Origin: Geosiphon pyriformis uo1
Taxonomy: Eukaryota > Fungi > Glomeromycota
Direction: 5' to 3'
Length of the DNA: 64,000 nucleotides
Assembly (NCBI GenBank): GCA_016748015.1
Contig: JAAOMT010000348.1
Coordinates: 4,441 to 68,440, forward strand
The notes below the pieces were generated by a model. The model did not search any database and had not been told where the DNA came from. It worked only from the letters and a program-made list of their open reading frames with translations. Shown piece by piece: positions 12,160-44,409 of the stretch. The translations under genes and the position numbers were made by a program. Position 1 is the stretch's first letter. Every line of letters starts with the position of its first letter.

Positions 12160-12226
12160 TTTTGTCTCTTCCTTTTTAGCAATAAATTATTGCTAATTAT
12201 TATTTCTTTTTTGATTTTCTTTTTTT

Positions 12227-12239
12227 GTAGGGTTCACTA
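12227..12239 (-). promoter_or_regulatory. Primer-binding site of element B
   Basis: TAGTGAACCCTAC (decayed TGG...) 2 nt inside the 5' LTR. Confidence 0.7.
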
Positions 12240-12241
12240 AA

Positions 12242-13572: not shown

Positions 13573-13639
13573 TTTTCTGATATTTTCTATCACATTTATC
13601 ATGTCTTTATATATTCTTTTAATGGATCAATTTAACGTG

Positions 13640-15009: not shown

Positions 15010-15070
15010 TTTTTGTTATATTTTCGTTAGATTTGGTTTGGTTTTGTTATATTTTTGGATTGAAATGTTA

Positions 15071-17974: not shown

Positions 17975-18559
17975 TCCTTTGTCGAGTAAATGTTCGCCAC
18001 AAGTGAGACATAGTTTGTTGTCCCACTTGCTTTGTCATTTTGGGTAGCCATAGTGTTCTCTATCATATGGCTTGCAATAATAGTGAGTCCTCATCCAGTA
18101 GTCTTCATTAGGTGCAATCCATGCTCCCATGGAAGAGAGTTTCTTCTTATAGTCCTGACATTTTAAGGAAATGTAAGGTGGCTCCTTTACTGGCTCACAT
18201 AAGTATTTTCTTTCCCAGCCACTGGTTATTTTCTTGGTGACTTTGTCAGTTTCTTCAAGTAAGTCTTCTTTTTTTCCCTTTCTTTTTTCTTTCCAGCTTG
18301 TTGGTATTGATTTGTTTTCATTGTTATTGTTCTAAACGTCGATAGTAGTCTCCCAGGTATGTTCTTCTGTTTTTTTTCTTTTTCCCTTTACATTGTTCTT
18401 TTTTTCCCAGTCTAGAATTGGTGGTAGCTCATTGTGTTCGACGTCAGCCCATGATACTTAGTATGCCTCTCAAGTAAGCTTTAGTTTTTCCTCCTCGAAA
18501 TCAATAAGTGGTGCTGATGACATGATATTGTTGGGTTTGAAATGGCCACATGTTGCCGG

Positions 18560-18920
18560 TACTTATGTGTGTTGGCTATTTTAGCTGAGTTAGAGTTCCT
18601 AAGTGATCCAATTTAGTGTTGCATTGGTTTTAGATAACCAGTCATTGTCCACTAATGCCTGATATTGCATTGCTTCCATTACCAAGACTTTGATGAGAAT
18701 GATAATACCATTAACTTCAAATGGGAAGTTGTCAATCTCACCAATAGAAGTTTTGGTGGCTTCATCGGCTGTTATAATCCTTGCACTGGCAGCTCAGTCA
18801 ACTTGGTGACCTAATTGATCTATGAGTTGTCATGTAATGATACTGCTTGCTGAACCACTGTCAAGAATCAGTTTGATGAGGTGACCATCAACTTTTGCAT
18901 CAGTATACATAACTGTGATA
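18560..18920 (-). pseudogene. Element A aspartic protease
   Basis: VDGHLIKLILDSGSASSII at ~18841-18895. Confidence 0.9.
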
Positions 18921-19174
18921 GGCTTCTTTTCCAATACAGCTTCACTAAATAATGGCGTGGCTGAGGGTTTCTCAAATTCAAAGGGAAAAATGGCGTCTAG
19001 AGCTTTGTTTTCAGTAATTGTTGCTGGGAGAATATTGGTGAGTGTTGTTTGCTGATTGAATTCTGGTTTGTTGGAGGTGGCATTTTCTGGGGTGACCAGA
19101 AGACTTAAATAGTTCTGAGAATTCAGGTTTTGGGTGGGACCAGTACTCGAATTCCAAGAGCATAATCCAGCTGG

Positions 19175-21301
19175 TTAATAAGAAGAGTTGGGGATCAGTT
19201 GGTGAACAACCATTGCTGATCTCCAGTTTTGAGTAATTCTAGGTCTTGGGTTTTCTGATGTCATAGTAGCTGAGTTTTGGGGTGGTGTTTGAATTTGTTG
19301 GAGTTGATAGATCACTTGAGACAGTGGCTGATAAATTACTTGTGGCTGTGGTGAATAAATTGTTGGGTTTTGATAAATTGGAAGTTGATATACTGGTGGT
19401 TGATAGATTAATTGTTGCGTCATTGGTAGGTAAGTAGTTTAATATTGTGCTGAGTTTAATTGATAATTCGGAGTTGAGAACTGGTGATCAGAGTTTTGAT
19501 ATTGATTTTCCGATCATTGGTTATTTAAATATTGGCAGCAGTTAATTTGGATATGTTCTTGTTTACCACAATAGTGGCAAATACATGTTTCCTGTTGCCA
19601 CTGTTGATTGGTCGATAAAGATGGACATAGTTGATTTTGGGCACAATTAGAGTTTCCTTAATTATTGTGTTGTTGTAGAGACTAATAAATAGTGTGATTG
19701 TCAGCTAAGTATCCTTTCAATTTCTTATTAATTGATTCACTGAACTTCTCCAATTTGGAATCCAATTCAGATAATTCATTCATCACTAGATTAACAGCTT
19801 GGACATGGTTGGCCTCTGACTCAGCAGATTCAAAATCTTTGGCATATATAACTGCGTCTTGAAGTGTACCTGGATGTAACAGACATACATGTTGCAAGAT
19901 GCTGCTGCACAGACCATGGATAAGCTGGTTGAAGATCTGTAGTGCTGTGAAATAGTTGGCGTCAATTGCTTGAATTTGGCACAGATTTCAATAGAAGTGT
20001 CCCAGATAAGTGGTGACTGTTTCAGTTTCTTCTTGTTTCATGGTGGTGAACACATTGACTAGGTAATTAATGCTGTTATTGTTGCTAAAGTAGCTTAGGA
20101 ATTCCATTTTGAAGGCATTAAAATCTTGTGGTTTATTATTCAAGCTCTGATACCATGAATTGGCAGTATCTTTGAAAAAGTAGGAAATGGCTTGTATTGT
20201 TTGGGTGTCATTCTATTTGTTGACTGTGATGGCCTTTTCTACATTATTTAGCCATACTTGAGCATTGTCTTCTTCACCAGTAAAGTTGTCAAGTTTTGCG
20301 ATTAGTGTGTAGGCCATTGAATCTAAGTTAGGTTGTTGTGGTATCTGTTGAAGTGGTTGTTGTTGTACTGGTTGTTGGAGTGGTAGTTGAAGTGGCTGCT
20401 GTATGGGTTTGGCTATTGGATTAATTGGTGGTTGATCAATGACAATTATCAGAGGTAAGTTTTGCTGATTAATTAATTCGGAGTTTGGATTGTTTTGCCT
20501 TTGATGATTTACAGTTTCGATTTCCGAATTTTCTAGATTTAGATTTTGCTGAGTTTGAAGATTCGGGGTTTCAACTTCCAGGTTTTCAGTGATCAGATTT
20601 TGGTAAGTAAATTTTTGTTCCTCAGATTCTTTTTCTTTTTCTTTTTCTGATTCCATCACTTTTCATAGATCAGAAATTCTGAAATCTGATGGCAGTGGTG
20701 GTGATCAGAGGCCTGATGGAGTTGGTGATTGCGAGTTAAATCCTTCAAAGTATTTGCCATATGGTTCTAGTAAGTCTGTTTTTCTTTGTTTACTTTAAAA
20801 TAGAAATCTTCCAAATGCTGATGTCATGTTTGATGTGGATGCGCCTATAGATGTAATATTAATGGCACTTTTAGGTGTATAGTGGTATGATAGATTAGTT
20901 GGGGATTCAACTCTTGTTTTTTTCTAAATAAGTGGTTGTATTCTTTTAGGTATTACTACTGGTGTTTGTAGTTTTTCTTTGCCTTTACTAGCATATGTAA
21001 TTAGATATCTTTGCTGTGTGTGATGCTCAATTTTTTTGTTGATCTCAGTGATGATAGAGGCAAAATTGTGATTTGTTGGCAGGTTGGTATTTTGAATTAA
21101 TTCACTGTAAAAGGCTGTTCTTGCTAATTCAGTATTTACTGGTGTTCCCAACAGATATGCAATTTTTTCATTGATGTAGAAGTTGAAGGCTGATTCGGCA
21201 GATATATGATTGTGGTTTAATCTCAAGTGTGGATAATAGTGTTAAAATAAGAATTTTGCAAATTCTAGATGGTTTGCTCTTATGTTTTCTGATTTTGCCA
21301 C
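19175..21301 (-). pseudogene. gag: Element A gag with CCHC zinc knuckle
   Basis: IAKLDNFTGEEDNAQVWL; CHYCGKQEHIQINC at ~19538-19580; Gln/Pro-rich tail. Confidence 0.9.
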
Positions 21302-21346
21302 TTTTAGATTTGTGTTGATGCTGGTTCTCTGTAGAATTATATCTTA

Positions 21347-21358
21347 CAGGGAGCACTA
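21347..21358 (-). promoter_or_regulatory. Primer-binding site of element A
   Basis: TAGTGCTCCCTG (decayed TGGTGCTC) just inside the 5' LTR. Confidence 0.75.
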
Positions 21359-21360
21359 AA

Positions 21361-22223
21361 TGTTACAGATGATTATTTGGGGTCTTAGGTCAAATAACAA
21401 ACCTGTAACTTGGTGCTTAAAAGCTACTCATATTGTTGATAATAGTTTTAAGTAGTTGGTATCTGAAGGTTTTTCCAAATGAGTCTTTTGTATAATGAAC
21501 AGAGATTTTTTGTTGATGGTATTTGCAGTTTTTCTGTAAGTTGTTTTTCAATTTTTTTCTTAGCTTGGTGGCTGGATTTATTCTGGCAGTCGTGTTCTTC
21601 TGGTAAGCTATCCGATAATATATATAATTCTACTCTTATTTCTGGGTCTTTTACCAGACTATTATAACATCAATAACTCAGTGCTTTTAACCTTTAATCA
21701 ATTAGTATACAATAACAAAATCAAAGAAGAAAATAAAAAAAATAAAGAAATGTAAAAAATTAAGCCAAAGTGAATTGCAAATTAGTATCCTGTCAATAGT
21801 CATAATCAAGAGCTATTGTTTTAGTGTTGTTAAGTATTAATTACTATTAACATGAAGAGTTGATAGTGGAAGTGAGTTTGAAATAATAAATAGTTATTTA
21901 TTGTGGTTTAAAAGGTTGTTTAAATTAAATCTAAACTGAGAGGTCTGTATTTTCAGCTTTTAATACTACTGCTATATATACATAATTGAGATTCTTCAAT
22001 TTCTCGATTCTTCACAACAAGAGTCTTAGAATTTCTGGAATCCTGCGATTTCTTTGAGAGAAATCCTAGAATTCTGGAATTCTGCAATTTCTTGTGTAAG
22101 AATCCTGTAATTTCTAGAATCTTGCAATTTCTGAAACAAATTCTGGAATTCTATATTTACTACATCTACTTCTGATTGGCTAATAATTATGCTAATATAT
22201 TTTCTATATTTCTATAAATAATA
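21361..22223 (-). repeat. Element A 5' LTR
   Basis: Near copy of 4028-4879; the outer terminus has decayed. Confidence 0.95.
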
Positions 22224-25200
22224 CTGATTACTTTACAGTATTACAGATTTTAAATTAATTTATTTATGAATTAAGTAGCAGTTTGTTACAATAAGTACAT
22301 TTAATACACCCAAATATTCTTTAAAATATAGTTATATATGCCTAAGATTTTGAATTGGTCAAACTTGAAGCCAATTACATTCAAGCCATAAATTTAATAA
22401 TAAACAAATTATCTAAATTAGATTCTAAGCTGAAACAATTCAGTGACTTTATTAATTAGAAATTAGAAAAATACTTAGTTAAAAATCAAGCAATTTATCA
22501 GTCTTTTTAATATTATGACAATTCAGGAAACTCCAATCACTTCTAAAATTCATCACATCTATTATTGTTATTATTAAATCAACTATAACAACAAAAAATA
22601 CATAATTGTTATTATTGTAATAAACAAAGCTATTTAAAAGCAGATTGTCACTTCAAATTTAATAACCAATAATTAGAAAATCAATATTAAAACTCTGATT
22701 GCAAGTTTAAAACCCAGAATTATATCAACAATTTATTATTAGAATTATATTTATATTAATTATATTACTTCCAAATAATACAACAACTTATATATATACT
22801 TCCAGTTTATCAAATTTCAGCACTAATAATCTATTAATCATAGCCATAAGTAATATATTAAATTCAATCAATTTAAATACTGCCACAAAACTTAGCTTAA
22901 ATAACAACTGAAAATCAAAAACTGAAAATCATATACACACAACAAAACTAAAAATTAGCAATGATTATGCACCAATCAATTTCTAGTTTCATAAATTAAG
23001 CATTAAAATTATGTTCAAAAAATTCAGAAAATAAGTACATCTAAAATTCGAATTCCCAAAACTATTTAAATTTCTTAGTTATCCCAAAAAACACTCAATT
23101 CAACAAATCAGAACAGCTAAAACAACCATTTTTCAATAATATTTTACTAACAATAGTTATTGAAAACAAGTTACTTGCAGTTATCTTTTTTTTTAAATTA
23201 GAAAAATCCTTAACAACATCTTTTTTTAGTAGAACTATTCTTAATACTAAATTGATTACTGCTATATATATGAATACTAAAATTAATAACCAATTCATCA
23301 AGCTAATTCTTGATAGTAGATCAATAAACAGTATTATTACACAACAACTTATAGACCAATTAGGTTGCTGAGTTAATCAAACTGCCAGTGCTAAAATCAT
23401 TATAGCTAATAGAATAACAAAAACTTTTATTGATAAAATTGATGACTTTTTATTTAAAGTCAATAATATCATTGTACTAATCAAAGTTTTAGTCATAAAA
23501 ATCACACAATACCAAGCTTTTATTGGTAATAACTGGCTGTTCAAGACTAATACAATACTTAACTGAACTACACAAAAGCTACAGCTTAGTTAAAATAGTT
23601 AGTATACTTAAATACCAGTTATCTGTGGTCATTTCAAAACAACCCAATTACAATCGTTGATTGAATTTAAGAAAAAAATAAACAAATTATTTGAAAAGTC
23701 TGTCAAGTTTCATGGGCCAAAAAAGAGCACAATAAACTGTCACCAATACTCTTTTGGAACAATAAAAGAAAAAGAAAGAAAAAAAACTCTCAAAACACTA
23801 CTATTACTAAAAAAACAGCCCAACAGTTGGTATGTACTTTATTCATCAAAACAAAAGAAAAAACCATCTTATATTTGTCTTAGATATATTGATTATAAAA
23901 AAAACTTTTTTTCATGTAAGCTTAGATTTTACCAAAAGAGAACTACTAAAAACATATTCACTATTATTGTAAACTATATTACAGAAAATTTTTTGGTTAT
24001 TCAAAATGACAAGGAAAATAGGACAACAAATTATGTTTTACTTGTGAAAAAACATTATTTAACAAAAAAATATGGAATAATATTTCTAATTAAGAAGAAA
24101 TGTACAATACTTTGTATCAATATACAATTTCCATAAATAATTGAATAAACTAAAAAATGTCTTTTAATGCTATATAGAACTAAGTGCTCTTGTATTTGAA
24201 TTGTTATTCACATAACAAAAACAAGATCTAGAAAATAACAAATACCAAAGTCAAAGACATTTTATTCAATAAAATATTGATAATTAAAAACAATCTACCA
24301 GAATCTATTAATACTATTCTTATCCTGAACTCAAACATTTTTTTTAACATTCTAAGTAATCCAGAACAATTTTACAAACATTACCAAGATCTAACACCTA
24401 TTCAAAATAAGCAAAAGCAGTATTTAGAACAATTAAATACTAAACTTTGTAAATATTGTCTAATTTTTAGTGATTTTAAATATTGTAATAATTGTAATTT
24501 TATTTACAATTCACTTTTATACATGATCTATTTAATTTTCAAAGAAAAAAAACCAATTAACAAGTGTGTTTTAGAATCAAAATTAAAATTTAATTATAAT
24601 TCAGTTTTTAACAATAATAACAATAACAATTTTAATATTATTTATTATAATAATAACAACAATAATAATTCAAACTCTGACAAAAATCTCAAACAATATA
24701 TTGTGTTCTCAAAAGCAGAAACTCAAATGGTTCAGTAATAATAATAAGAATATTATGCCAAAATATGCACATAATATTAATATAGAATTTAATTTTAGAT
24801 ATTTAAAAAAAACTGTTATCTGATTGGAATTTTATTTGCACACTAGTATAAATCTAAAAATAGCACTGAAAATTTTAACAGCAACAATAATCCAATTAAT
24901 TTTTAGATCAAGTTTAGTAAAAAAAGGGATTAATATTAGAAAAAATAATTGATGTAAGATATATAAAAAATATCATTACAATACTACAAAATAACTTAGA
25001 AAAAAGATATATTATTAAACCAAATAAAAAAATAGCACAGGCAATATTTTTGTTTTTGGTTAAAATAGTTCAATTAGTATTAGTAAAAATGAGAAAAAAA
25101 TTAGGAATTATGGCAAGAGAGAAATAAATGAATTTGGATAAACAAGTAGAATAGAGATATTAATTAATATAGTTGAAGAGAAAACAATTGATAAAAAAAA

Positions 25201-25373
25201 ATTATTTTTATCAATTAATCCATTTCAATTCTATTATATGATCAGTATATATTAACTATAGAGAAAAAAATAAAAAATTAATTCCAAACTTTTAAAGCAA
25301 AACCAAACATTTATGAATCAAGAAAAATTGACATTATTAATCTCTATATACTAGCCAAAAACCACAAACACAT
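22224..25373 (+). pseudogene. H1 gag C-half, protease, Cys-rich domain and dUTPase (strongly decayed)
   Basis: Knuckle CYYCNKQSYLKADC (22607-22648), LILDSRS (~23303), LCKYC..CNNC, KIAQAIFL (~25030). Confidence 0.85.
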
Positions 25374-26231
25374 TGTTATTTATAGAATATAGAAAAAATA
25401 TTAGTATATAAAATAGCCAATCAGAAATAAATGTAGTAAATATGGAATTCTAAGATTCTTTTTAGAGAAATTGCAGGATTCTAAAAATTTCAAGATTCTT
25501 ATATGAGAAATTGCAGGATTCCAGAATTTTAGGATTCTTCTTAAAAAAATTCCAGAATTCCAGAAATTCCAGGGTTCCTGGTAAGAAGAATTGAAAAATT
25601 GAGGAATCTCAATTATGTATATATAGCAGTAGTAATAGAAGTAAAAAAAAAGACAGACCTTTCAGTTTAGATTTGATTTAAACAATTTTTCTATTTATAA
25701 ATATCAATAAATAATTATTCACTATCTCAATTTATTTTCTACTGTTAACATTTCATGTTGATAATAACTGATATTTAATCATACTGGAACAATAGCTCTT
25801 GATTATAGCTATTGATGGGATACTAACATTTATTGTCTTGGCTTATTTCTTTATTTTTTTCTATTTTCTTTTGTTATTTCTTTGTGTTTTACTAATTAAT
25901 TAAGGATTAAAAAAAACTGAGTTACAGACATCATAGGGACTGATAAAAAACCCATAAAACAAAAATAGAACACTTATAATTGAGAATAGCTTACCAGAAG
26001 GATTACCAGCCATCACACTAAAAAAAAATTCGATAGAATTACAATTCCAAAAGACTACTAACACAACAATTGAATCTCTGTTCATTATACAAAGGACTCA
26101 ACCAAAACTTTCAGACAATCAAAACCTTCAGATACAAACAATCTTTAGATATTATTAACATTAACAAGTAAATTAGCACCAAGTTATGGGTTTGTTATTT
26201 GATTTGAGGTCCCAAATAATAATCTGTAATA
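25374..26231 (+). repeat. Element D 5' LTR
   Basis: TGTTA...TAATA; GAATTCCA-type repeat array followed by TATATATA at 25618-25625. Confidence 0.95.
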
Positions 26232-26295
26232 TTTGGTGCTTTCTGTAAAGTATAATTCAACAGAAAACAAGCACCAACAACAACTATACAAAACA

Positions 26296-29200
26296 GTGAC
26301 AGAATCAGAAAAAACAGAGACAAACCATTTGGAATTTGCAAAATTCTTATTTTAGCACTACAAAAGTCATTTGAAATTAACAAATAATAATTGGCCAGCA
26401 GAATCAATTTTCAATTGCTATATCAATAAAAAAATTATATATTACTTAAGAAAACAAGGAGATTCAGAATCCGCCTTCAACAATTTCTTTAGTGAACTAC
26501 TTTAAAACACCACATTACTACAAAACTATCTATTTGCATCAATAATTACAGAAATAAACAAAAAAATTGAAAAATACACCAAACAAAAATTTCTCATCAC
26601 TTTTGCAGACAAAAGGAAAGGAAGATTACAAATACCAGTAAGAATCCCAAAACAAATACAACTACCTATTTGGAAAAAACAAAAAGTTAATTCTCCAGTA
26701 AATTCATTATATTATCACACATCTGGAAGCATTATCAATATAATATTAACAGGCATGTCCACAATAAATACAACAATACTATTAAATAAAATTCTATTCT
26801 AAAGTAAACAAAAGAAAGCCAAGTTATTGGGAACATATAACAATTACTTTGAAGGATTCAAATCATAATCTCTAACACTATCAAAAATTTGATTATCATT
26901 TAAACAGCCAGATTTTGGAGCTGTCAGTCCATAAGAGATAACCAATTTTGAGAAAAAAAAAGACAGCAATCAAGAAATAAATAGTCAAAATCTAATCCCA
27001 GAAAACCTGGAAATTCAAACTCCAATCATCCCAACTCAGCAAAATTAGAATAATCCAAACACTGCTCCTATTGTTCCCCAAAACTTACCTTCAATAATCC
27101 TGATTGATTCACCTTTAGTCCCACCAATTATCAAACAGCAACAACAATTACTATTACCTTAGTAACAACCACAACAGCCATTTTAACAACCATAACAACT
27201 GCAACAACTGCCATTCATAGCTTCAATAATATATGTTCCAATTGCGAAAATCAAAAAATTTACTGGCGAGAAGGATGACACCCAAGTATGACTCAATGAT
27301 GTGAAAAAAGCCATTACAGCCAACAGATGAAATGATGACAAAATTTTTTAAGCAATTCCCTATTTTCTTTAAGATATTGCTGATTTATGGTATCAAAGTT
27401 TAGCTGCCAAACCACAAACTTTTCAATAATTTAAATTGAAATTTGTAAGATATTTTAGTAACAATAATAGTATCAACTGACTGACAAATATCTTTACTAC
27501 CATCAAACAAGGAGAAACTAAAGCAACTACTTAACTAGGATGCTTCCATAGAAATTTATGCCAAATACAAGTAATTGATGTGAATTACTTTATAGCACTA
27601 CAGATTTTGAATCAATTTATCTGTGAACTATACAGTAGCATTCTCCAATACATATGTTTATTATATCTATCTGACTTTCAAGCTACCATCACTCATGCCA
27701 GAGACTTTAAATTAGCCAAACTCGAAACCAACCATGCTCAAGCTATCAATCTAGTAATGAATAGATTATCTGAATTAAATTTGAAATTAAAACAATTCAG
27801 TAATTCTATTAATTAAAAATTAGAGAAATATTTAGCTAACAATCAGGCAATTTATTAATCTCCACAATACCACAATAATCAAGAAAACATGAATTGTTTC
27901 TAATCTTAGCCATATTTATTACCATTGACCAATTAGCAATGGCAGCAGAAAACACATGTTTGCCACTATTGTAGTAAACAAAAACATTTGAAAATCAACT
28001 GCAGATTAAGGATAGATAACCAACAATCAGGAAATCAATATTAAAATCATGATTGCCAGTTTCAAACTCCAAATTATTAATCAAACCCAAAACCATATCA
28101 ACCAAATTATCTACTCATGACACAGCAGCCAATCTATCAATTACCAATTTATTAGCCTTTAGTATCTGTAATTTATTAATTGCAGTCTTAATCTATCTAT
28201 TAGCCACAGCTTTAAGTAATCTATTAGCCCCAACTAATTCAAATACTGCCACCAAATTCAGCTCAGATAACATTAAAAAATTTCAGATCAAAGATCACTT
28301 AAAACTAAAGATCAATGATGGTTGTCTACTAACCAATTCCCAGTTTCTCAACCCAATAATCAGGATCTTGCCAGTAGAGTTTGAGAACTGGATATATTCA
28401 AAATCTGAATTCCCAGCACTACTTAAGTTTTTTGGTTATCCCAAAAGACACCTCATCCAACAATTAGGAACCCAACCAGAAACAGCCATTTAACATTAAT
28501 ATTTCATTAACAACTAGTACCAAAGACAAATTATTTGCAGCTATATTCTCTTTTGAACTTGAAAAAACTACTCTAGTTTCATTATTCAGTGAAGCTGCAC
28601 TTAACACCAAACTTATTACTGCAATGTACACTAATGTCAAAATTAATGGTTATCTCATCAAACTAATCTTAGATAGTGAATCAGCTGGCAGTATTATAAT
28701 ATGACAACTTATGAACCAATTAGGTCACCAAGTTGATCATATGGCCAGTACCAAAATTATCACAGCTGATGGAGTGACCAAAACTCTCATTGACAAAATT
28801 GATAACTTACCTATTGAAGTCAATAATATTATTATACCAATCAAAGTTTTGGTAATAGAAGCCACACAATATTAGGCTCTTGTTGATAATAACTGGCTAT
28901 TCAGGACCAATGTTATACTTGATTAGACCACATAGAAGCTCCAGCTCAGTTAAAATAAGCAACACATCTGAGCATTAGTCATGTATGGACATTTCAGAAC
29001 TCTTTCAAAGAAAGAACAACTATTGATCAAGCTAAAAGAAAAAAAAAAACTTACCTGAGAAGCCTATCAAATCTCATGGACCAATAATGAGCACAATGAA
29101 TTACAGTTTATACTCTTATAAGATGACAAAGAAAAGAAAAAGCAAAAAGAAGAACTTATCTAGAATAATAATCAAAAATTGTAAACTGACAACAATCAAA

Positions 29201-32200
29201 ATGAGCTGATACCAAGTTGGAAATAGAAAAAAACCAAGAAAGAGAAAGAAAAAAAAAAAGAGCTATCATCAGCAATCACTACAAATTATACTCCATATAC
29301 CTATACTCTACTACAACTGTTTAACTATTGCCGACTAAAACTAATATGCATTGATTGTGGCAAGAAATTGTCATTAATGGGCACATGCTATGGCAATGAT
29401 GAAGAATACCCAACAGCAACAAAATTCTATTGTCACTCATGTATTCTTAAATGATTTAGATGACCAAAAAGACAAGAGAAATGGGACAACAAACCATGTT
29501 TGGCTTGCAAAGAAACTCTTTTTAATAAAGAAATGTAGAATAACATTCCTAAAAGAGGAGGAATATGTAACAAATTGTGTCAATACACAATTCTAATCAA
29601 TGACTGGGTACACAAAATAACATCAATAGAAGCAGCCTGAAGAAGAGCAGTAAAACATTTGGATAGATGTCCCCATAATAATAACAAAATATGACACATG
29701 GCACCTGCTAAAATCAAAGGAGCATTACCAAAAGAAATAAAAGTGATTAAAAATAATTCACTAAAACTCATAGAACTCGATTGAGATCCAAATTCAGATA
29801 TTGTACTAGATTCTATATACTCAGAACAATTCTATGAACACTACCAAAAATTAGCACTCACAAGAGAAAAGCAGAAACAATGCTTAAAAGAAATAAACAC
29901 TCAACTATGTGACCATTATTTGATTCCATGTGACTTCTAATATTGTAATGAGTATAATTTTATCTATAATTTATCATTACACATGATCTACACAATTCCA
30001 AAAGAAAAAAAACCAATCAACAACTGTGTATTGGAATCAAAAGTACTGTTCAATCTCAATTTAAACTCTGATAATAATGATAACAAAAATAACAGTTTTA
30101 GCTCTATTTAAAATGGCAATAAAAATAACAATAATTCAAGGAACAGAAATTTAAATGGTTCAGCAATAATAATAAAAGTATTATGCCAGAATGTACATAT
30201 AATACCAATACAGAATTTAATCTGAGATATCTTAGAAAAAATGCCATCAAATTGGAACCACATTCACGCATCTGCATTGATCTTAAAATAGCACTGGAAA
30301 TCTCAACAACAACAATAGTTCAATTAGCATTTAAGAGTAGTTTAGCAAAAAAGAGAATCAACATCAGAGAAGAAATAATTGATGCAGAATATGTGAAAAA
30401 TATCATTGTAATGCTACAAAATAACTCAAAAAAGGCCTACATAGTAGAGTTAAACAAAAAGATAACACAAACAATATTCTTGCCTCTGGTTAAAATAACT
30501 CAATTAGCATTAGTGAGAAACAGAGAAAAATTAGGTATTATAGCTAAAGGAATACAGGGAATCAGATTCATGAGTAGAATAAATGTACCAATTAATATGG
30601 CAGAAAAAAAAGTTATTGATAAGAGAGAAATTATCTTCAACTATTAATTAATTTTTATTCTATCATATAACCAGTACATATTAGTTATAGAAAGGGGAGT
30701 AAAAAATCAAGCTCAGATTTTTGAAGCAAAAAACTACTATATGTAAACCAAGAAAGATTGGACTTACTAATTTTTACATATCAGCCAAAAGTCTGAAACA
30801 TATTAAAATTTCTATTTACAACACAACAAAAAATGTTCTTGAAATACTAAAAGAAACTACCATCAGATATTTAAGCACTAAAGTTAAAAAACAATTACCA
30901 AACCCCATTTTAGACTTTCTATAACTGTGTAGATATATAAATATTATATTACAAACAATATATGAATAAGAAAAATATTATTTGCTTTAATCAGAACAAT
31001 TGAAACAAATAAACTTGAGAAATCTAAATCCACTATAACATATGTAGCTTAAAATGTTACTCAACAATTTCAATGACATTTTTGCTAGTAAAAACGAATT
31101 TGACAAAACCAACATAATTCAGTATCAGATAAAAACTGAAAATGCAATGCCAATCAAACAGAGAGCATACAGAATACCACTAACAAGCTATAAAATCATC
31201 AAACAAGAGATTAATCAAATATTAGACAATGTGTTAATTCAACTATTAATAAGTTCATGGTTATTACCAGTGGTACTAATCCATAAAAAAAATGGGAAAA
31301 TATGCTTTTGTGTGAACTACTGAAAACTTAATGAAGTAACCAAAAGAGATAGTTACTCAACTCTAAAAATTTAAGAACTGTTTGATGCTTTTGGAGAAAA
31401 AAATTAGTTCTTAACTTTAGACTTAAACAGTAGTTACTGGCAAGTAGTTATGAAACCAGAAGACAAGAAGAAAATGGCTTTTACAACTTTAGAAAAAAAT
31501 TTTGAATTTGAAGTTATGTCATTTGGCTTGATGAATGCTTCTGCCATATTTCAACAGTTTATGAAAATTGTCTATACTGGACTGCTATGGAAATCAGTAG
31601 TCATATATTTAAATAACACTAATGTGTTTTTCAAGACATTTGATAATCATTTGCACTATCCAATAAGTATTTGAAAAACTAAAAAAAGCTGAATTAAAAT
31701 TGAATACAATCAAGTGTTTTTTTGGGAAAACTGAATTCAAGTTTTTGGAACATGTTGTAAGCAAAGATGAAATCAAAACAGATCCAGACAAAATTAAGAT
31801 AGTTAAAAATTTTTTAGTATTCACCAATTTGACTGAATTATAAGCATTCTTGGGATTTGCAAGATACTATTGCCACTTCATTAAAGATTCTCCAAACTGG
31901 TTTAGCTATTATACCAGCTTTAAACAAAGAACACCAAATACAAATAAATAAAAACTCAGCATTAAGCTTTTAACACATTAAGAAAAAAGCTTATTTAAGC
32001 TCCAGTACTAATCTATTTGGATTATAGTAGGCTATTCATAATTACAACTGATGCATCAAGTTAAACATTAAGAGCAATACTATCTTAGAAAAAACTGAAT
32101 GGAAGAGAACACCTAGTAATATATGTTAATTACAGCTTAAATCCAACTGAAAAAAACTATAGAACACCAGCATTAGAATACTTAGCAATTTGTTAGACAG

Positions 32201-32406
32201 TTATAAAATAAAAAAAATACTTGAACCAAAAGTTTGATGTGTATATTGATCATAAAGAACTAACTTTAATCCAAAAGCAAGAATTTAAAGATGATCATCA
32301 TGTTTAATAGAAAATAGAACTTTCACTATTTAATTATATAGTACATTACAAAAAAGAAAAAAAAAATGGAAATGCTAATGGCTTGTCACAAATAAGACAA
32401 ATCTAA
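26296..32406 (+). pseudogene. gag-pol: Element D ORF1: Gag (CCHC 27961-28002), protease (~28620-28950), Cys-rich domain (~29340-29990), dUTPase (30183-30575), RT and RNase H
   Basis: CHYCSKQKHLKINC; LILDSESAGS; IIDAEYVKN; CFCVNY; VIYLNN; TTDAS; YIDH; ends NGLSQIRQI*. Confidence 0.9.
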
Positions 32407-32436
32407 GAATATTTCTACTCAAAAATATAACAAAAG

Positions 32437-33815
32437 ATGAATATACAAAAATATCAACAACTTCAACACTATATTAATATCCAGCAGTTTAAGAAGAAAT
32501 TATCTCCAAAAGAACAAAGCCATATTAAACAACAATCTAAATATTTCATTACTCACCAAGAGATACTTTATTGGAAAAACAGAAAGAATTCAGATCAACC
32601 AACTAAAGTAATTACAAAACCAAAGAAAGAAACAATATTGTTCAATATGCATTCAGATTTAACAGCAGGACATTTTCATAAAGAAATAATCATAGAAAAA
32701 ACCAGAAAAAGATACTATTGGCCATTAATGTATCCAAATATTATTCAATATGTTCAAAATTGTGATGCTTGTCAGAAAAAAAAAAGAACAAAACTCAGCA
32801 AACCATTAAGACCAATTAAAGTGAAACAACTATTTAACCATATTAGAATTGACTTAGTCAAACTATTAACAATAACTAACAAAAAAATAGATATATCACA
32901 GTAGCCATGGATTATCTTATTAAGTGGCCAGAAACAAAAGCCATTTAAAGAGCAGATGCTGAATTCATTGCTAAATTCATTCATCAAGATTTAATTTGTC
33001 AACATGGATGTCTAAAAGAACTACTATCAGATCAAAGAACTTACTTCATAAACAAAATACTAGCAGAACTAAGTCAAATATTTGGAATTAAAAGACCATT
33101 ATCATTATTATATCATTTATAAACAAATGGGTTAGTTGAAAGATTTAACAGAACATTGTGTAAAGCAATTGCCAAAATCAGCCAAGAAACCAGAATGAAT
33201 AAAATTTGTTTATATTATCAATATTATTTGTTTATTGAACAATAAAACAAGACACTACATAAGCAATACTATTTAAATTAGTATATGATAGAACAACAAC
33301 ATTATTAGTTGAGATAAAAGTTAACACATATCCAACAGAACCAATAACTGAAAACAATTTTCAGGAAATATTGCTAAGAAGAACATATAACTTATGGAAA
33401 CTCTAGAAAACAAATGACAAAAAGCAGCTGATAACATTTAAAAGTCACAAAAAAAACAAAAAAAAAACATGATAACTAACTATCAGATAAACCAGTTGAA
33501 TTCAAGATTGGAGACAAAGTACTTTTATATCATACCAAAGCAGAAAAACAATAGAGTAGAAAATTTGACCCCAAATAGAACAGACTATTTCACATAAAAA
33601 AAATTCTAGAAAATGAAGCTTATAAATTAAGGTTAAACAACAAAATTTTAATCAAAACAGCACATGGTAATTGACTGAAATTATATTACCATATAGTATC
33701 ATCACTCACCAATAATATTTCACAATTAAGAGTACAGAGAATACTAGTCCAATCTAATAAAATTCTATAAGATCTAGAACTAATTATTATTATTAACACC
33801 AACATATCAAATTGA
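32437..33815 (+). pseudogene. Element D integrase (separate ORF with own ATG)
   Basis: MNIQKYQQL...MHSDLTAGHF...CDAC, IDLV, LSDQ, NGLVERFN. Confidence 0.92.
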
Positions 33816-33868
33816 ACAACTAAAAGAATATAAAAACATGGTAGATATAACAAAAGCAACAAAAAAAA

Positions 33869-34498
33869 ATAGAAATACCAAACCATATTTACACTTTAGC
33901 TCAACAACTCTTTCAACTAATACAATAATAAAAGATGAAAATTACAATCAATCAACAAATTATCAGATACAAAAACACCAAAAAAGAACCACAAGATAAA
34001 ATACGGAGAAAAACAGAAAATACTATTGATAAAATAATTACAAAGGCAAAATTGGTAATAAAAACACAACCAAAAGTTATTCAATATTAAGAGTTGATGA
34101 TAAAAACATAGAATTGATAGACACAACAATTTTCAAGAAACTTTTGCTATTTCTATTTGGAACAATATCTGAATATTCAGAACTTATATATAAACAAAAC
34201 AAAGCAATTATTTAATCCAGGAATATTACAACAACTTGAACAATTTGTGAAAAAAAACAATTTAATCACATAAGCATGAACCATTTATTGATTACAAATC
34301 GAATTTCAAGACCAACCAGAAATCTTACTCAATTCAACAATAGACTTTATTACTGTTAACCAAATGAAAAAAATAATCAATGCCCAATTTGAAAAATTAC
34401 AGAACAAGATAACACAAGTAATTCTCGAAAAAGAAGTTCAAGAAATATTTAAAGATAGAGCATTAGAGTTAAGGAATATTGACAGAGCTCAATATTAA
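33869..34498 (+). pseudogene. Element D ORF3, unknown function
   Basis: Start decayed to ATA; ends NIDRAQY* at the PPT; collinear with ORF3 of A and E. Confidence 0.8.
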
Positions 34499-34512
34499 AA
34501 AAAAGAAAATAA

Positions 34513-35364
34513 TGTTATTCATAAAATATAAGAAGAATATTAGTATATAAAATAGCTAATTAGAAATAGATGTAGTAAATATGGAATTTTAAAATTTCTC
34601 TCAGAAAAATTGCAGGATTCCAAGAATTTCAAGATTCTCATATAAGAAATTGCAAAATTGCAGAATTGCAGAATTTCTCTCAAAAAGATTGCAGAATTCC
34701 AGAAATTTCAGAATTTTTGGTAAGAAAAATTGAGGAATTAAGGAATCTCAATTATGTATATATAGCAGTAGTAGTAAAAAAAAAGAACAGACCTCTCAAT
34801 TTAAATTTAATTTAAGCAATCTTCTACATCACAAATATCAATAAATAATTCACTTTCTCAAATTTACTCTCTACTATCAATGCTTTATGTTGATAGTAAT
34901 CAATACTTAATACATTAGAACAATAGCTCTTAATTATGACTATTGATAAAATACTAACTTGCAAATTGCCTTGGCTTATTTTCTTTATCATTTTTTTTAT
35001 CTTTTTTATTTCTTTTTGTTTTATTAATTGATTAATGATTAAAAAATGCTGAATTATAAACGTTATAGGGACTGGTAAAAGACTCATAAAACAAGGGTAA
35101 AACACTCATAATTGAGAATAGCTTACCAGAAGGATTACTGGCCACCATGCTGAAAAAAAAATTTGATAGAATTGCAATTCTAGGAGACTACTGACACAAT
35201 AATTGAATCTTTGTCCATTATACAAAGAACTCAACCAAAATCTTCAAACAACCAAAACTTTCAGATACAAACAATCTTTAGATATTACTAATGTCAACAA
35301 GCAAATTAGCACCAAGTTATGAGTTTGTTATTTGATTTGAAATCCTAAATAATCATCTGTAACA
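34513..35364 (+). repeat. Element D 3' LTR
   Basis: TGTTA...TAACA; near copy of 25374-26231. Confidence 0.95.
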
Positions 35365-37574
35365 ACATTAAAATTTCAATATACAATACAACCAGAAACT
35401 TTATAGAAATATCAAGTAAAACTACTATCAAATACTTAAGTACTGAAGTTGAAAACCAATTACCAATCATTATTTCAAATTTTTTACAACTGTATAGATA
35501 TGTGGATATTATATTACAAACTATATATAAACAAGAAAAATATTATTTCTTATAATCAAAATAATTAAAACAAATAAACTTGAGAAATTAAAACCTATTT
35601 TAATATATGCAACTTAAGATACTACTCAACAATTTCATTAATATTTTTGTCAATAAAAACAAATTTGGTAGAACTGATATTATACAAGACCAGATTAAAA
35701 CTAAAAATGATATGTTAATTAAACAAAAAACATAGAAAGTACTATTTGCTAATCATAAGATTATTCAACAAGAAATCAATTGAATGTTGAACAATAAGTT
35801 AATTTAACTATTAATAAGTTTATGGTTATTATTAGTGATATTTGTTCAGAAGAAAAATAAGAAAATCTGCTTTTGTATAAATTATAAAAAACTTAACAGT
35901 ATTATTTGTAGAGACAGCTATCTAATTCCATAGATCCAAAAACTATTTGACATTTTTGGAGGAAAGAAATAGTTTTCAACATTGGACTTAAATAATGGTT
36001 ACTAACAAATAGTCATGAATTTAGCTGATAAAAAAAAGACAGCATTTACTATCAAAGAAAAAAATTTTGAATTCAGTATTATGCTATTTGGCTTAACTAA
36101 TATTTTAACTATTTTTCAACATCTCATGAAAATTGTTTATACAGAATTACTATGAAAATTAGTAATAATTTATTTTGATAACATTAATATATTCTCAGAA
36201 ACATTTAATGATTATCTTTATTATTTCTAATAAGTGTTTAAAAGATTAAAACAAGTAGAGCTAAAGTTAAATGCCATTAAGTATTTTTTTAGAAAAACTA
36301 AACTCAAGTTATTGGAACATATTGTGAGCAAAAACAGCATAAAAACAAATTCAAACAAGATTAAAATAGACAAAAACTTCTTANNNNNNNNNNNNNNNNN
36401 NNNNNNNNNNNNNNNNNNNNNNNNNNNNNNNNNNNNNNNNNNNNNNNNNNNNNNNNNNNNNNNNNNNNNNNNNNNNNNNNNNNNNNNNNNNNNNNNNNNN
36501 NNNNNNNNNNNNNNNNNNNNNNNNNNNNNNNNNNNNNNNNNNNNNNNNNNNNNNNNNNNNNNNNNNNNNNNNNNNNNNNNNNNNNNNNNNNNNNNNNNNN
36601 NNNNNNNNNNNNNNNNNNNNNNNNNNNNNNNNNNNNNNNNNNNNNNNNNNNNNNNNNNNNNNNNNNNNNNNNNNNNNNNNNNNNNNNNNNNNNNNNNNNN
36701 NNNNNNNNNNNNNNNNNNNNNNNNNNNNNNNNNNNNNNNNNNNNNNNNNNNNNNNNNNNNNNNNNNNNNNNNNNNNNNNNNNNNNGTTGTCAAATAAAAA
36801 AAATACTTAAATTAAAAGTTTGATATATATATAGATTACAAAAAATTAACATTAATCCAAAAGCAAAAATTTGGAAATAATTACTATGTAAAATAAAAAA
36901 TAAAACTATTATTATTTAATTATATTGTATATTATAAAAAATAAAAAAAAATAAAAATACCAATAGTTTGTTATAAATAAGACAAATTTAAACATTTCAA
37001 TCCAAAAATATAACAAAAAATAAACATACAAAAATATTAACAACTTCAACACTATATTAAAACTTAACAGTTTAAGAAAAAATTATCTTAAAAAAAACAA
37101 AACAACATAAAACAACAATCAAAACATTTTATTATTTACTAAAATATACTATATTAAAAAAACAAAAAATATTTAAACCAGTTACTTAAAGTAATTACAG
37201 AACCAGAAAAAGAAACAATACTGTTTAACATGCACTCAGATCCAGTAGCAAAACATTTTTATAAAAAAACAACCATAGAAAAAACCAGAAAAAAATATTA
37301 CTGGCCATTTATGTATTTAAAAATTATCTAATATATTTAAAATTGTGATGCTTATCAAAAAAAAAAGAGAAACAAGATCCAGTAAACTGTTAAAACCAAT
37401 TAAAATAAGACAACTATTTGATTAAATTAGAATTAACTTAGTGAAACCATTAACTATAACTAGTAATAACAATTAATACATAGTAATAATCATAAATTAT
37501 CTCACAAAATAGCCAGAAGCAAAAGCAATTCAAAGAGCAAATACAGAATTTATAGCTGAATTTATTTACCAAAA
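35365..37574 (+). pseudogene. pol: H1 RT, RNase H end and integrase N-half (gap inside)
   Basis: CFCINYKKLN, IYFDN, LLEHIVS, MHSDPVAKHF. Confidence 0.85.
36384..36785. other. Assembly gap (N run)
   Basis: Run of n inside H1 RT/RNase H. Confidence 1.
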
Positions 37575-38363: not shown

Positions 38364-39478
38364 CAAAATTTGATTTGTTGATATGAATATCCAAAAAAAT
38401 TGTTATCAGACCAGAAAATCCACTTTATGAACAGAATATTAACAAAATTAAGCCAAAAATTTGGAATTAAAAGACTATTATTATTATCATATCATGTATA
38501 AACCAATAATTTAGTCAAAAGATTTAACAGAATATTGTGCAAAGTAATAGCCAAGATTAACCAAAAACATCAAGACAAATAAGATTTATTTATACTACCA
38601 GTATTATTTGCTTATTGGACAATAAAGCAAAATACTACACAAACAATATTATTTAAACTAGTCTATATTAAAACAGCAATATTACAGTTAAGATATATAT
38701 TAATATATATCTAACAAAACCAATAACAGAAGCTAACTTTTAAAAAACATTGCTAAAAAAAACATATGACTTAATAGAAACTTTAAAAAACAAAAGACAA
38801 AAAACAGTTAATAATATATATAAATTACAAACAAAACAAAAAAAATGACATGATAACCAATTATTAGATAAACTAGTCAAATTTAAGATTGAAAACAAAG
38901 TACTTTTATATTGTATCAAAGTAAAAAAACAATAGAATAAAAAATTTGACTTCAAATAGAACAGACTATTTTATATTAAAAAAATTCTAGGAAATAGAGC
39001 TTATAAATTAAGATAAACAACAAAATTTTAGCTAAAGTAACACATAGAAATTAACTAAAATTATAATACAATATAATATTATTATTTACCAATAATATTC
39101 CACAATTGGAAATACAATAAATACTAATTTAACCAAATGAGATTCCACAAAATCTAAAACCAGTTATAATTATTGATACAAACATGTCAAATTGATCTAC
39201 AAAAACAGTATATAAAAAATTAATATATACAATAAAAGCAAGTAAAAAAATGGAAATTACTGACAATATTTTCTCATTTGTACAACAATTATTACAACTT
39301 ATTTAACATCAAAAATCAAGTCTAGAAATTATTATTAACAAACAAGCAATTTAAAATAAAAACAAAAGAATAAATCAAAAATCTCAATATTCCAGATATT
39401 ATATTTCTGGAAATCTAGTAAACAAAATAATAGAAAAAGTGGAAAAGACTCTAAAAACTTCAAGGATAGTAATATTAG
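38364..39478 (+). pseudogene. H1 integrase C-half and start of ORF3 (ATG 39250)
   Basis: LLSDQKIHF, LVKRFN, ILGNRAYKL; then AAAAATG MEITDNIF, cut by element C. Confidence 0.85.
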
Positions 39479-40429
39479 TATTACCAATAAAATTTTAGCT
39501 ATTAATTAGCATGAAATTACCTTCATAATTCCTATTATATATTAGCATATATTATTATTATTTCGATTATTACTTATTATTTAATCAAATTATCAAATAT
39601 TATTACTCAATTAATAAACCAATTTGTACCATAAAAATTAAAATGATCAAATTACACAATACTCTGAACCATTTAATATAGTTAAAATTCGCCGAAATAA
39701 TTAATAGTTTGTACAAATAACTTGTAGTTCACCAAAATATATCTTTAGTTTGCCAAAATTAAAGCAAAGAAAAAAGTGCAAGTTCAAAGACTAGTATTAC
39801 AACAAGTTGTATAAAAAAAAAGCTTTTCTCTTCAAGAAAATGTATCTTTTTATATCATAGTATAGTATTTTACTTTAGATATCTTAATTATAACAAATCA
39901 TTTTTTACAAAAATCAAATAAAAATTAAAATATTCTAAAACCAAATTCTTAAATTATTACACTTAAAATTCTTTTAGCACAATTAACGTTTTGAAATTAA
40001 TTAACTACCAATTTCAATAAACTGTTAGTAACTCCAGGTCTGAATAGAAAATGTTTCTTTTGATAAAATCTTATTTTTTTTACATTTTTTTTATTTTTTT
40101 TCTCTTTTCTTACTATAATTATTAGAGTAGTCTGCAGACAAAATTTCTGTAGAAAAGTTAACTTTCACAGCAAAAGTAACTACACATTTTTAGTAAACTT
40201 CTAGATAAGCAATTCCTGAGAAGAAGTTGACATTTATTACAACATAATTACACAAAAAAACTGGCACAGAATTAGTCATTTTACTTATAAGTTCAGCAGT
40301 TCAAATTATAGAAGATAATTTGAAAATAAATTCAGTTATTGGAGGTTCAACTGCTTCCAAAAAACATAAAATTAGCAACAGACAAACATTAACAACATTC
40401 AAAAAAAAGACCAAAAACCTTTGGTAACA
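39479..40429 (+). repeat. Element C 5' LTR
   Basis: TATTACC...GGTAACA; near copy of 50299-51262. Confidence 0.93.
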
Positions 40430-40901
40430 TTTGGTGCTCTCTCACAGAAATAACATAGCAACAGCAAATTTAAAGTAGTGACCACACCAAACACAATAAC
40501 TCTAAAATATTATCAATCAATTTACATTCACTGCAAGCAAAGATTCAACATTTAAGACGGAATTGAAATTTTTAAGAAATCACTATACCAATATATTAAA
40601 AACTGCATCAACAATTATTTTTTTGGAAACTACAATATTTCAAAAGTCAGAAACAACTTTTACAATATTTTATTGTACTATTTACTATTGAGAACTAAAG
40701 ATTTTAACAGTGAAATACTTGTTACTTACTTTCAAGAACTTAACTTTAACATTATCCAGTACTGTAAAAAAAAGTATCTAGTACAATCCAAATACTTTCT
40801 TAACTTTAAATCAGAAACAGAGACAAGCAACAAAGGCAAAAAAAATTGAAACAACACTCAAAAACTGCTCCAAACACTCTAAGAATACCAAAAACAACTG
40901 C

Positions 40902-41890
40902 TGTTATCAGAGATTTTTGGTCTCTTTTCTTGAATGCTGTTAATGTTAATTTGCTGTTAATATTAATTTGCTGTAAATTTACATTTCCAAGAAGTAGTTG
41001 AACCTCCAGTAACTGAATTTATCTTCAAATTATCTCCTATAATTTGAATTATTGGGCTTATAAGTGGAATGGCCAATTTTTTGCCAGTTACTTTATGTAG
41101 TTCTATTGTAGTAAACATTAACTCTTTCCTAGGAATTGCTTATCTGGAAGCTCACTAAAAATGTGTAGTTACTTTGCTGTGAAAGTCAACTTTTCTACAG
41201 GAATCTTGTCTGTAGGCTACCTTAATAATTATAATAAGAAAAAAAAGAAAAATAAAAGAAATATAAAAGAAATAGAATTTTATCAAGAGAAACGTTTTTC
41301 TATTCAGGCCTGGAGTCACTAACAGTTTATTGAAATTGGTAGCTAATCAATTTCAAAACGTTAGTTGTGTTGAGAGAATTTTAAGTGTGATAATTTAAGA
41401 ATTTGGTTTTTCGAATATTTAATTTTTATTTGAATGTGTAAAAGTGATTTGTTTCAATTAAGATCTCTAAAGTAGAATGCTATAGTAAGATACTATAAGA
41501 AGATACATTTTCTTGAAGAGAGAAGCTCTTCTTTTATATAACTTGTTGTGGTACTAGTTTTTGAACTTGCACTTTTCTCTTTGCTACAATTTGGGTGAAC
41601 TTAAGATATATTTCAGCAAATTTACAAGTTATTTCACTGAACTATTGATTATTTCGGCGAATTTTCATTAATTTCGGCAAATTTTGACTATGTTAAATGG
41701 TTCAGGGTATTGTGTAATTTGATTATCTTAATTTCTAGAGTACAAATCTGATTATTGATTAAGTAATAATATTTAATAATTTGGTTAAATAATAAGTGAT
41801 AATCGAATTAATAATAATGTATGCTAATTAATAATAGGAATTATGAGAGTAATTTCATGCTAGTTAATGACTAAAATTTTACTGGTAACA
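40902..41890 (-). repeat. Solo LTR (C-type), inverted, in element C gag
   Basis: TGTTA...TAACA; perfect TSD CTGC (40898-40901 / 41891-41894). Confidence 0.95.
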
Positions 41891-42240
41891 CTGCCAAATA
41901 CTTGCAAACACCTGAACAAGGAACCAGCATTAAATTATTACTTTTTATTATACCATTTCCAATTTCACTTGCTTAACCATAAACACCAAGTTCACCACTT
42001 ATCTGTTTCTTCAGACCAGAAGATTTTTAGTTACCTAAAAATCTTACTCAACAGCAAAAACCAATATCAATTAGCACTAATATTATTAATTATTTACAAG
42101 AAAATAAAAGTAATCATTCAAAAAACTTAGAAAGTAAAGAAACTAAATCAGAACAAGAAAAAACTACAGAAAATGAAAAAAAATGGCAACTGTTTATATT
42201 GCAAAAATCCCAAATTTACTGGTGAAAATAATAATACCAG

Positions 42241-43222
42241 TGTTACTGGAGGTTTTTGGTCTCTTTTCTTAAATGTTGGTAATGTTGATTTGCTGTGAAT
42301 TCACGTTTTCAGGAAGTAGTTAAACCTCCAATAACTGAATTTATCTTCAAATTATCTCCTATAATTTGAACTGCTGGGCTTATAAGTGGAATGGCCAATT
42401 CTTTGCCAGTTACTTTATGTAGTTCTATTGTAGTAAACGTTAACTCTTTCCCAAGAATTGCTCGTCTGGAAGCTCACTAAAATGTATAGTTACTTTGCTG
42501 TGAAAGTCAATTTTTCTACAGGAATCTCGTCTGTAGGCTACTCTAATGATTGTAATAAGAAAAGAAAAGGAAATAAAAGAAATATAAAAGAAATAAAATT
42601 TTGTCAAGAGAAACGTTTTCTATCCAGGCCTGGAGTCACTAACATCTTACTGAAATTGGTAGCTAATCAATTTCGAAATGTTAGTTGGTTTTTGAATTTT
42701 TTTCCAAGTGCAATAATTTAAAGAATTTGGTTTTTCGAATTATTTGATATTTATTTCTTTTTGTGTGTATAAGAACGGTTTTAAGAGATAAATCTAAAGG
42801 AAGATATTTTTTTCTCAAAGAAAGAAGCTTTTCTTTTATACAACTTGTCGTAACACTATTCTATGAATTTGAACTTTGCTATTTTCTACAATTTTGCTGA
42901 ACTAAAGATACATTTTGGCAAACTACAAGTTATTTCTGCGAACTTATTAGATATTTTGGTGAACTATCAATTATTTCGGCGAATTTCTATAAATTTCAGC
43001 AAACTTTTGAATGTTACATAGTTTGAGGTATTGCATGATTGATCATCGCAATTAGGTTACATTTGTGTTGTGTACAATTTGGGTTATTAATTAAATGATA
43101 ATTTCGGACATTCTTTGCTAATGTAATAAGTGATAATTTGAAACGATAATATATGCTAATTAATGATTGGAATTATAAGATAGTTTCATGCTAAATGATA
43201 TCTCTAATTTCGTCTGGTAACA
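42241..43222 (-). repeat. Solo LTR (C-related subfamily), inverted, in element C gag
   Basis: TGTTA...TAACA; perfect TSD CCAG (42237-42240 / 43223-43226); one half diverges from the other C-type LTRs. Confidence 0.95.
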
Positions 43223-44219: not shown

Positions 44220-44409
44220 TCTGGTCAGTAAAGATCCAATTACTACCACACTCAATCCAGTTATCTTACAATGCCAAAAGAATCAGATTTTTAACAAACT
44301 GCACTTTCTAAAAATCTGGTTAGTAAAGACCCAATTACTATCACACTCAATCCAGTTATCTTACAATGCCAAAAGAATCAGATTTTTAACAAACTGCACT
44401 TTCTAAAAA
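44220..44409 (+). repeat. 95-bp tandem duplication in element C gag tail
   Basis: 44220-44314 is repeated at 44315-44409. Confidence 0.95.

Follow-up and report, generated by a model that had tools for sequence, protein, structure and literature searches.

A separate integrase frame downstream of Gag-Pol in a Ty3/Gypsy-type retrotransposon lineage of Geosiphon pyriformis and related elements

Textbook long terminal repeat (LTR) elements and retroviruses carry integrase into the particle as part of Gag-Pol. The window analysed here, a 64,000-nt stretch of Geosiphon pyriformis contig JAAOMT010000348.1, raises the question of whether some LTR elements make it from a frame of its own, as a first-pass annotation had proposed from six copies read as a Gag-to-RNase H frame, an integrase frame and a third open reading frame (ORF3). 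The window is an AT-rich nest of decayed LTR retrotransposons in which self-comparison found three LTR families and six element bodies, and these six are the copies compared throughout: A, B, D and H (family 1), C (family 2) and G (family 3). The split layout, with integrase and ORF3 as separate downstream frames, is almost certainly real. Element D, put forward earlier as the uninterrupted template, proved to be the only copy free of both nested insertion and large loss, and its features are listed below.

25374-35364, + strand: element D (family 1), LTRs 83% identical, ACAT target duplication, without nested insertion
25374-26231, + strand: 5' LTR, TG...TA (a decayed TG...CA), with ACAT at 25370-25373 and 35365-35368
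26232-26243, + strand: primer-binding-site (PBS)-like sequence, directly after the LTR
26244-32406, + strand: cistron 1 (decayed), with Gag N-terminal extension, capsid, CCHC, protease, Cys-rich domain, dUTPase, beta-type linker, reverse transcriptase (RT) and RNase H
Landmarks of cistron 1, + strand: capsid core from 27226, CCHC knuckle 27961-28002, protease at about 28666, TAA 32404-32406
29341-29960, + strand: Cys-rich domain, in all three families, with a codon-position coding signal and no known family
30180-30575, + strand: dUTPase between protease and RT, transversion columns 2/0/19, strongly constrained
30585-30900, + strand: domain after the dUTPase, coding (P 0.04)
32407-32436, + strand: spacer of 30 nt, A-rich, without overlap or ATG
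32437-33815, + strand: cistron 2, stand-alone integrase with its own ATG, H2C2, D-D-E and SH3-like end, TGA at 33813-33815
33869-34498, + strand: cistron 3, ORF3, about 209 codons, 53 nt past the integrase stop, ending just before the polypurine tract
34499-34512, + strand: polypurine tract (PPT)
34513-35364, + strand: 3' LTR

The junction between RNase H and integrase carries the conclusion. A stop codon lies five to six codons past the RNase H end motif in 6/6 copies, and the spacers from stop to integrase measure 30 nt in D, 61 in B, 32 in H, 28 in A, 29 in C and 58 in G, with all three frames occurring; family-1 spacers are about 30 nt, A-rich, and contain neither an ATG nor a YAG splice acceptor. 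The integrase starts with ATG in D and B and with ATA in H, A, C and G, and its TGA at 33813-33815 is common to D, B, H and A. Coding frames were judged by a shared-stop test on projected alignments rather than from a built consensus. In the four-copy projection, 3445 nt from the Cys-rich domain to RNase H hold no shared stop, the shared TAA at 32404 follows, and the shared-stop-free runs of integrase (32431-33813) and ORF3 (33748-34496) lie in other frames. The stop, the separate methionine start, the varying frame and the clade described below are all demonstrated. Among solved structures, the integrase profile matches the Ty3 Gag-Pol best (PDB 7q5b, E 3e-51), and no chromodomain was found at the C-terminus of the window integrases, which end right after the SH3-like part, or in P0246 and P0320.

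That six copies of three families share the layout holds for their number, for the families and for the RNase H stop, but all three cistrons are whole in B and D only. The remaining copies are as follows.

4028-22223, - strand: element B (family 1), three cistrons, with C nested in its ORF3, RNase H stop near 15073
5046-13092, - strand: element C (family 2), inside B, RNase H stop near 6423, deleted from early integrase to mid-ORF3
2559-39477, + strand: element A (family 1), in four pieces (2559-4027, 22228-25373, 35369-37572 and 38368-39477), RNase H stop near 36989
39478-51262, + strand: element G (family 3), two inverted solo LTRs in Gag, RNase H stop at 48023, ORF3 at about 49600-50264
51263-59181, + strand: element H (family 1), 5' part missing, RNase H stop at 56270, longest RT-RNase H frame 55037-56176

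Element A, the host of B, D and one solo LTR, is missing the ORF3 end and the 3' LTR, and part of its RT-RNase H is covered by an N gap. In C the integrase is mostly lost (38/275 core positions found) and the front of ORF3 is gone, in G the end of the dUTPase is apparently missing, and H has neither 5' LTR nor the front of Gag. Target duplications are 4 bp long. The earlier statement that the LTR families lack evident similarity was borne out, with 45-50% identity between families under forced global alignment versus 83-91% for the LTR pair of one element.

The split extends to other genomes. RT-RNase H homologues of 665-2000 aa numbered 120 among the matches listed, and 115 of them were analysed in one tree together with the six copies and 87 loci. 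The six copies fall in a clade of 51 members (Shimodaira-Hasegawa-like support 0.996), of which the others are 38 proteins without integrase, 3 Rhizophagus clarus gene models, 3 loci and 1 truncated protein; within this clade the window copies are monophyletic (support 1.0; approximate likelihood-ratio test (aLRT) 100 for five copies), in agreement with the distinct lineage first proposed. In total, 38/42 clade proteins end without integrase, and in 35 of these the end lies no more than 30 residues from the RNase H end motif; nine integrase-less proteins fall outside the clade. The clade lies among integrase-fused Gypsy-type proteins, the references being database matches and not curated clade types. 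On a 69-row subset analysed with IQ-TREE, where supports are aLRT values on a fixed topology, P0088 and P0080 were drawn into the clade, and integrase is fused in P0051, the sister row. The clade is one of Glomeromycota and soil sequences. Its named members come from Rhizophagus, Cetraspora, Funneliformis, Paraglomus and Entrophospora.

A search with a clade integrase among proteins shorter than 684 aa, which favours short proteins, most of them without DNA context, gave 120 listed matches. Those of at least 400 aa numbered 81 among the matches listed, with a methionine start in 79/81 and with that start in one aligned column in 75/81. DNA context was available for two relatives. Locus L085 has the order RNase H with acidic tail, stop, 102 nt, integrase, 131 nt, an ORF3 of 146 aa, PPT, LTR, PBS and Gag, its RNase H/acidic-tail part including an N run and one frame change, and L093 has RNase H, stop, 117 nt, integrase, PPT and LTR, without ORF3; both spacers contain further in-frame stops before the methionine-initiated integrase. 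L085, L086, L087 and L093 are fungal-type retrotransposon contigs in bacterial genome records and are likely contaminants of those assemblies. Among 78 loci from a metagenome scan, the clade includes L009 and L049 alone, neither with an integrase seen, and the viral scans gave 6 loci, all outside the clade, and no integrase loci. Locus L017 was dropped as support for a split element, being outside the clade, with a spacer that is open and in frame and a decayed integrase. Judged by these relatives, the split is far wider than the G. pyriformis genome, and free integrase is the lasting trait of the lineage, while the dUTPase, the large Cys-rich domain and ORF3 vary.

In the wider lineage, the accessory set is not a constant feature: ORF3 is absent from L093, and most clade members have neither dUTPase nor Nudix domain. 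A dUTPase is listed for P0054, P0057, P0063 and P0088 (in P0088 after RNase H). P0048, P0061 and P0091 have a Nudix (MutT-type) domain upstream of RT and no dUTPase, both being nucleotide-pool cleaning enzymes. In one sub-branch (L085:2-1146; L009:2007-2687; P0074, P0096, P0100), an acidic, Cys/His-containing tail of 320-360 aa lies between RNase H and the stop, and it has no Pfam match.

Within cistron 1 of the window copies, Gag, zinc knuckle and protease share one frame in D, B and A, with a private shift in H, and Pfam matches among the 34 frames scanned cover Gag, dUTPase, RT (RVT_1) and RNase H pieces. Transversions fall mainly at third codon positions in Gag, protease, the Cys-rich domain, dUTPase, RT-RNase H and integrase, and LTR controls show no such bias. 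Since decay does not make transversions, they can be used as a selection signal, and by this third-position preference the dUTPase and the Cys-rich domain were kept by selection. The dUTPase matches PF00692 at 38-63 bits against a cut-off of 22, and the five motifs of trimeric dUTPases are visible in alignment with relatives. The Cys-rich domain has no match in Pfam or PDB. The domain after the dUTPase had been called a second, dUTPase-like domain, a label that comparison with the dUTPase does not uphold (hhalign probability 0.7-0.8%, rank 171/1001 against shuffles, no relevant Pfam match). A second open frame of about 150 codons over the Gln/Pro-rich linker between Gag and protease (28050-28490) occurs in D, B and H and is probably a by-product of codon use.

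ORF3 starts with ATA in D and with ATG in B, H and A. A profile built from 14 database proteins, three of which were looked up and proved to be G. pyriformis models, matches ORF3 in D, B, H, C and G (E 3e-43 for H, 7e-29 for C and 3e-9 for G, among 9751 segments). In favour of ORF3 as a gene are its single open frame, the start and stop common to the copies, and a protein similarity that spans families with unrelated LTRs, and its homology across families together with the shared RNase H stop places the layout before the split of the three families, as first suggested. The protein is predicted to be soluble and helical (mean predicted local distance difference test (pLDDT) score of 61) and not an Env: no membrane helix was found (highest 19-residue hydropathy 0.27-1.18 in 5 ORF3 proteins), and on this and the helical model an Env of errantivirus or retrovirus type was rejected; the wording 'retrovirus-like' for the lineage is not supported. 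ORF3 had no family match in Pfam, no Foldseek match with E <0.001 in PDB and viral libraries (best VIA-align Z 4.5), and low recognition without a credible match in two ESM Atlas searches; as the model is only moderate, the lack of a fold match is not proof of a new fold. Comparison did not link the ORF3 of L085 to that of the window (profile score below shuffles, hhalign 0.2%, fold pLDDT 36). By eye, family 1 (34478-34512) and L085 (3020-3065) seem to have a short motif in common at the ORF3 end, directly ahead of the PPT, a likeness that is unproven and possibly marks a cis-element.

The short frames of the copies reflect their decay. Transitions make up 123/141, 88/91, 72/74 and 89/102 of the differences between LTR pairs (87-97%, both strands), CpA and CpT are mutated about equally, CpC is affected as well, and CpG observed/expected is 0.07. 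Repeat-induced point mutation of the Neurospora type is C>T change focused on CpA, and it was rejected for this locus on the broad context of LTR-pair decay, with CpT about as frequent as CpA; a wide-context process of cytosine methylation or deamination is suggested instead. Over four coding stretches, 105/138 stop-bearing codons are CAA, CAG, CGA or TGG in another copy, and the copies appear as short ORFs because decay turns such codons into stops.

Compared with known systems, the elements share with Ty3/Gypsy (Metaviridae) and yeast Ty3 the LTRs, PBS, PPT, short target duplication, protease-RT-RNase H-integrase order, and Ty3-type capsid and integrase. In yeast Ty3, however, the integrase is inside a 1547-aa Gag-Pol, whereas here it forms a separate frame with its own methionine, followed by ORF3; the canonical layout with integrase inside the Pol polyprotein, which is typical and not defining, is not found. 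Chromoviruses differ in having a chromodomain at the integrase C-terminus. The first-pass view that Ty3/Gypsy elements lack dUTPase and extra 3' genes holds for canonical elements but not for published fungal and rotifer ones: a dUTPase between protease and RT is known from fungi, rotifers and planarians and is not new, and extra ORF3s have been published for fungal and rotifer elements (PMC2864245, PMC5408684, PMC6431247). PosPlaTy3-5, Phanerochaete elements and Tuber Tmt1 have a dUTPase in this position, some with an 'additional ORF' (PMC2864245); the text available from that source mentions no separate integrase, which sets these elements apart by description, and its element-structure supplement may bear on novelty. 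Bdelloid rotifer LTR elements likewise combine a dUTPase with an optional, family-specific 3' ORF3, but their pol is described as including integrase and their ORF3s are of Env, GDSL, DEDDy or transmembrane type (PMC5408684), whereas the window ORF3 matches no Pfam family or fold.

Hypovirus CHV1, HvV190S and the non-LTR element SART1 likewise place a long ORF before an overlapping or close ATG, an arrangement that works in fungi (PMC2699510, PMC10275272); window spacers are 28-61 nt without overlap, and coupled restart is not shown for an LTR element in the parts of those sources consulted. Ginger1 DNA transposons also have a stand-alone Gypsy-type integrase with H2C2 and DDE, TG...CA ends and a 4-bp target duplication, but they have inverted repeats and no RT (PMC6839031), whereas the window elements have LTRs, Gag and RT. 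A Ginger1 identity was rejected for the window elements on their LTRs and RT, a check that does not extend to database integrases lacking DNA context. Caulimovirus polycistronic RNA with TAV is similar in holding several cistrons on one RNA and a 3' accessory gene (PMC10275272), but ORF3 has no fold match in the viral library. No description of integrase as a separate cistron in LTR elements was found in the literature searched, which excluded Repbase, GyDB, the Geosiphon genome paper and subscription journals; the split layout is apparently a real variant of Ty3/Gypsy that is new to that literature.

As to how the integrase would be expressed, termination-reinitiation, with integrase joining the particle or cDNA in trans, has about an even chance of being correct. 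The Gag-Pol frame would end at the RNase H stop, and a few ribosomes would restart at the next ATG past it, giving integrase at low yield, which would then join the particle or cDNA, recruited via RNA, Gag or RT. By analogy with foamy viruses, recruitment through RNA or Gag may be envisaged. The dUTPase would, going by its family, limit uracil in the cDNA, some relatives having a Nudix hydrolase in the same protease-RT region, and ORF3 would be an optional soluble helper made from the same or a subgenomic RNA, perhaps a protein- or nucleic-acid-binding adaptor, as its helical core, mixed charge and lack of a membrane segment faintly suggest. The window copies were killed by heavy C>T/G>A decay. 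Restart is favoured because spacers are short and ATG-free and because 7/38 clade proteins end in residues permitting an ATG that overlaps the stop (background 9%, P 0.058); the end of P0061 and the start of P0258 fit one overlap, both being listed on 6268-bp JGI contigs that are presumably the same contig. Coupled restart has been shown in a fungus at 2.5-4.4%, tolerating 1-10 added bases (PMC2699510), and restart of the termination upstream ribosomal binding site (TURBS) type is efficient over roughly 30 nt (PMC10275272). A more far-reaching proposal, which we consider doubtful, is a polycistronic LTR lineage of mycorrhizal fungi in which one genomic RNA would yield three cistrons by serial restart, with ORF3 as helper (a TAV-like reinitiation transactivator or an integrase-to-particle adaptor); the free integrase could also be a step between Gypsy and Ginger1-type DNA transposons.

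Several observations weigh against the split layout or against restart as its means of expression. Decay can yield shared stops, and D, B and A share one at 27328 that is a capsid Trp in relatives. ORF3 transversions (24/18/26 by codon position in D, B and H, P 0.23) have no third-position excess. Clade support falls to aLRT 84 on the IQ-TREE subset, and all 81 integrases group with the window copies in the integrase tree with weak support (0.21-0.59). The spacers of L085 (102 nt), L093 (117 nt) and G (58 nt) are longer than the TURBS range of about 30 nt. Finally, L085, L086 and L093 have a T-rich YAG ahead of the integrase ATG, at 28, 27 and 9 nt respectively, and the L093 spacer holds an upstream ATG, both of which fit splicing better. 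Different branches may differ in mechanism.

The same layout could thus be served by subgenomic RNAs, spliced or internally started, for integrase (and ORF3), as for foamy-virus Pol and retroviral Env; this is possible, with a clearly less than even chance. Besides the YAG sites, a splice would skip the upstream ATG of L093, G has a branch-like motif and a CAG just past the stop, and ORF3s of LTR elements typically come from spliced messages (PMC5408684). However, the family-1 and C spacers contain no YAG, the 131-nt spacer before ORF3 in L085 is free of any AG, the overlap-type ends in 7/38 relatives are not needed for splicing, and AT-rich DNA may give YAG and branch-like motifs by chance. 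A splice joining RT-RNase H to integrase in frame, which would restore a normal Pol, is quite improbable. P0058, P0059 and P0062, the three Rhizophagus clarus gene models within the clade, run from RNase H straight into integrase, but in doing so they drop the conserved end motif of RNase H, which their sister P0055 keeps before it stops, and the methionine of integrase, which 75/81 stand-alone integrases retain.

Fusion through stop read-through or programmed frameshifting is improbable, because frames differ (5/6 window copies are out of frame, by +1 or +2) and the L085 and L093 spacers have extra in-frame stops, and it would not need the conserved methionine. Spacer length is divisible by three in D, L085, L093 and L017, and the L017 spacer is open, but L017 lies outside the clade and its integrase is decayed. 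That the split is itself a decay artefact (CAA or TGG turned into a stop) in dead copies, with ORF3 as unselected sequence, is highly improbable. It draws on the 105/138 stop codons with a sense counterpart, on the one decay stop shared by three copies and on the missing codon-position signal of ORF3, but three families and dozens of undecayed relatives have the stop at the same position, integrases have separate methionine starts, and ORF3 homology spans families with unrelated LTRs; for integrase this explanation is already largely refuted.

The surroundings of the copies add several observations on the locus. Within 2559-63371, each insertion with readable flanks sits within another element of the same lineage: A holds B, D, G and one solo LTR, B holds C, and G holds two solo LTRs. 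This self-nesting is seen despite integrases without a chromodomain. Element G has no matching target duplication (flanks 39360-39477 and 51263-51450), its left flank being A broken in ORF3 and its right flank H starting in Gag; the two family-1 elements were joined through G either by LTR-LTR recombination or by an assembly join. N gaps at 1896-2532 and 36384-36785 give long false ORFs in six frames. The longest frame of B (570 aa) matches 26 proteins, 26/26 named G. pyriformis, at 31-78% identity, and the D family is very abundant, with 61,836 contigs of the matching sequencing run aligning to D. LTR elements make up 41% of the G. pyriformis genome (PMC11952901).

A lineage that makes integrase separately needs some other way of producing the enzyme in the right amount and of bringing it to the ends of the cDNA, and an integrase made by restart would, if true, be an unusual way for an LTR element to make and package this enzyme. 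For annotation, gene callers join the two frames via invented introns, as in the three R. clarus models, and free integrase frames can be miscounted as rve-type DNA transposases, rve having been used to define Ginger (PMC5751038). The lineage is broad and successful, and its intact relatives in cultured Rhizophagus make the question of integrase expression testable.

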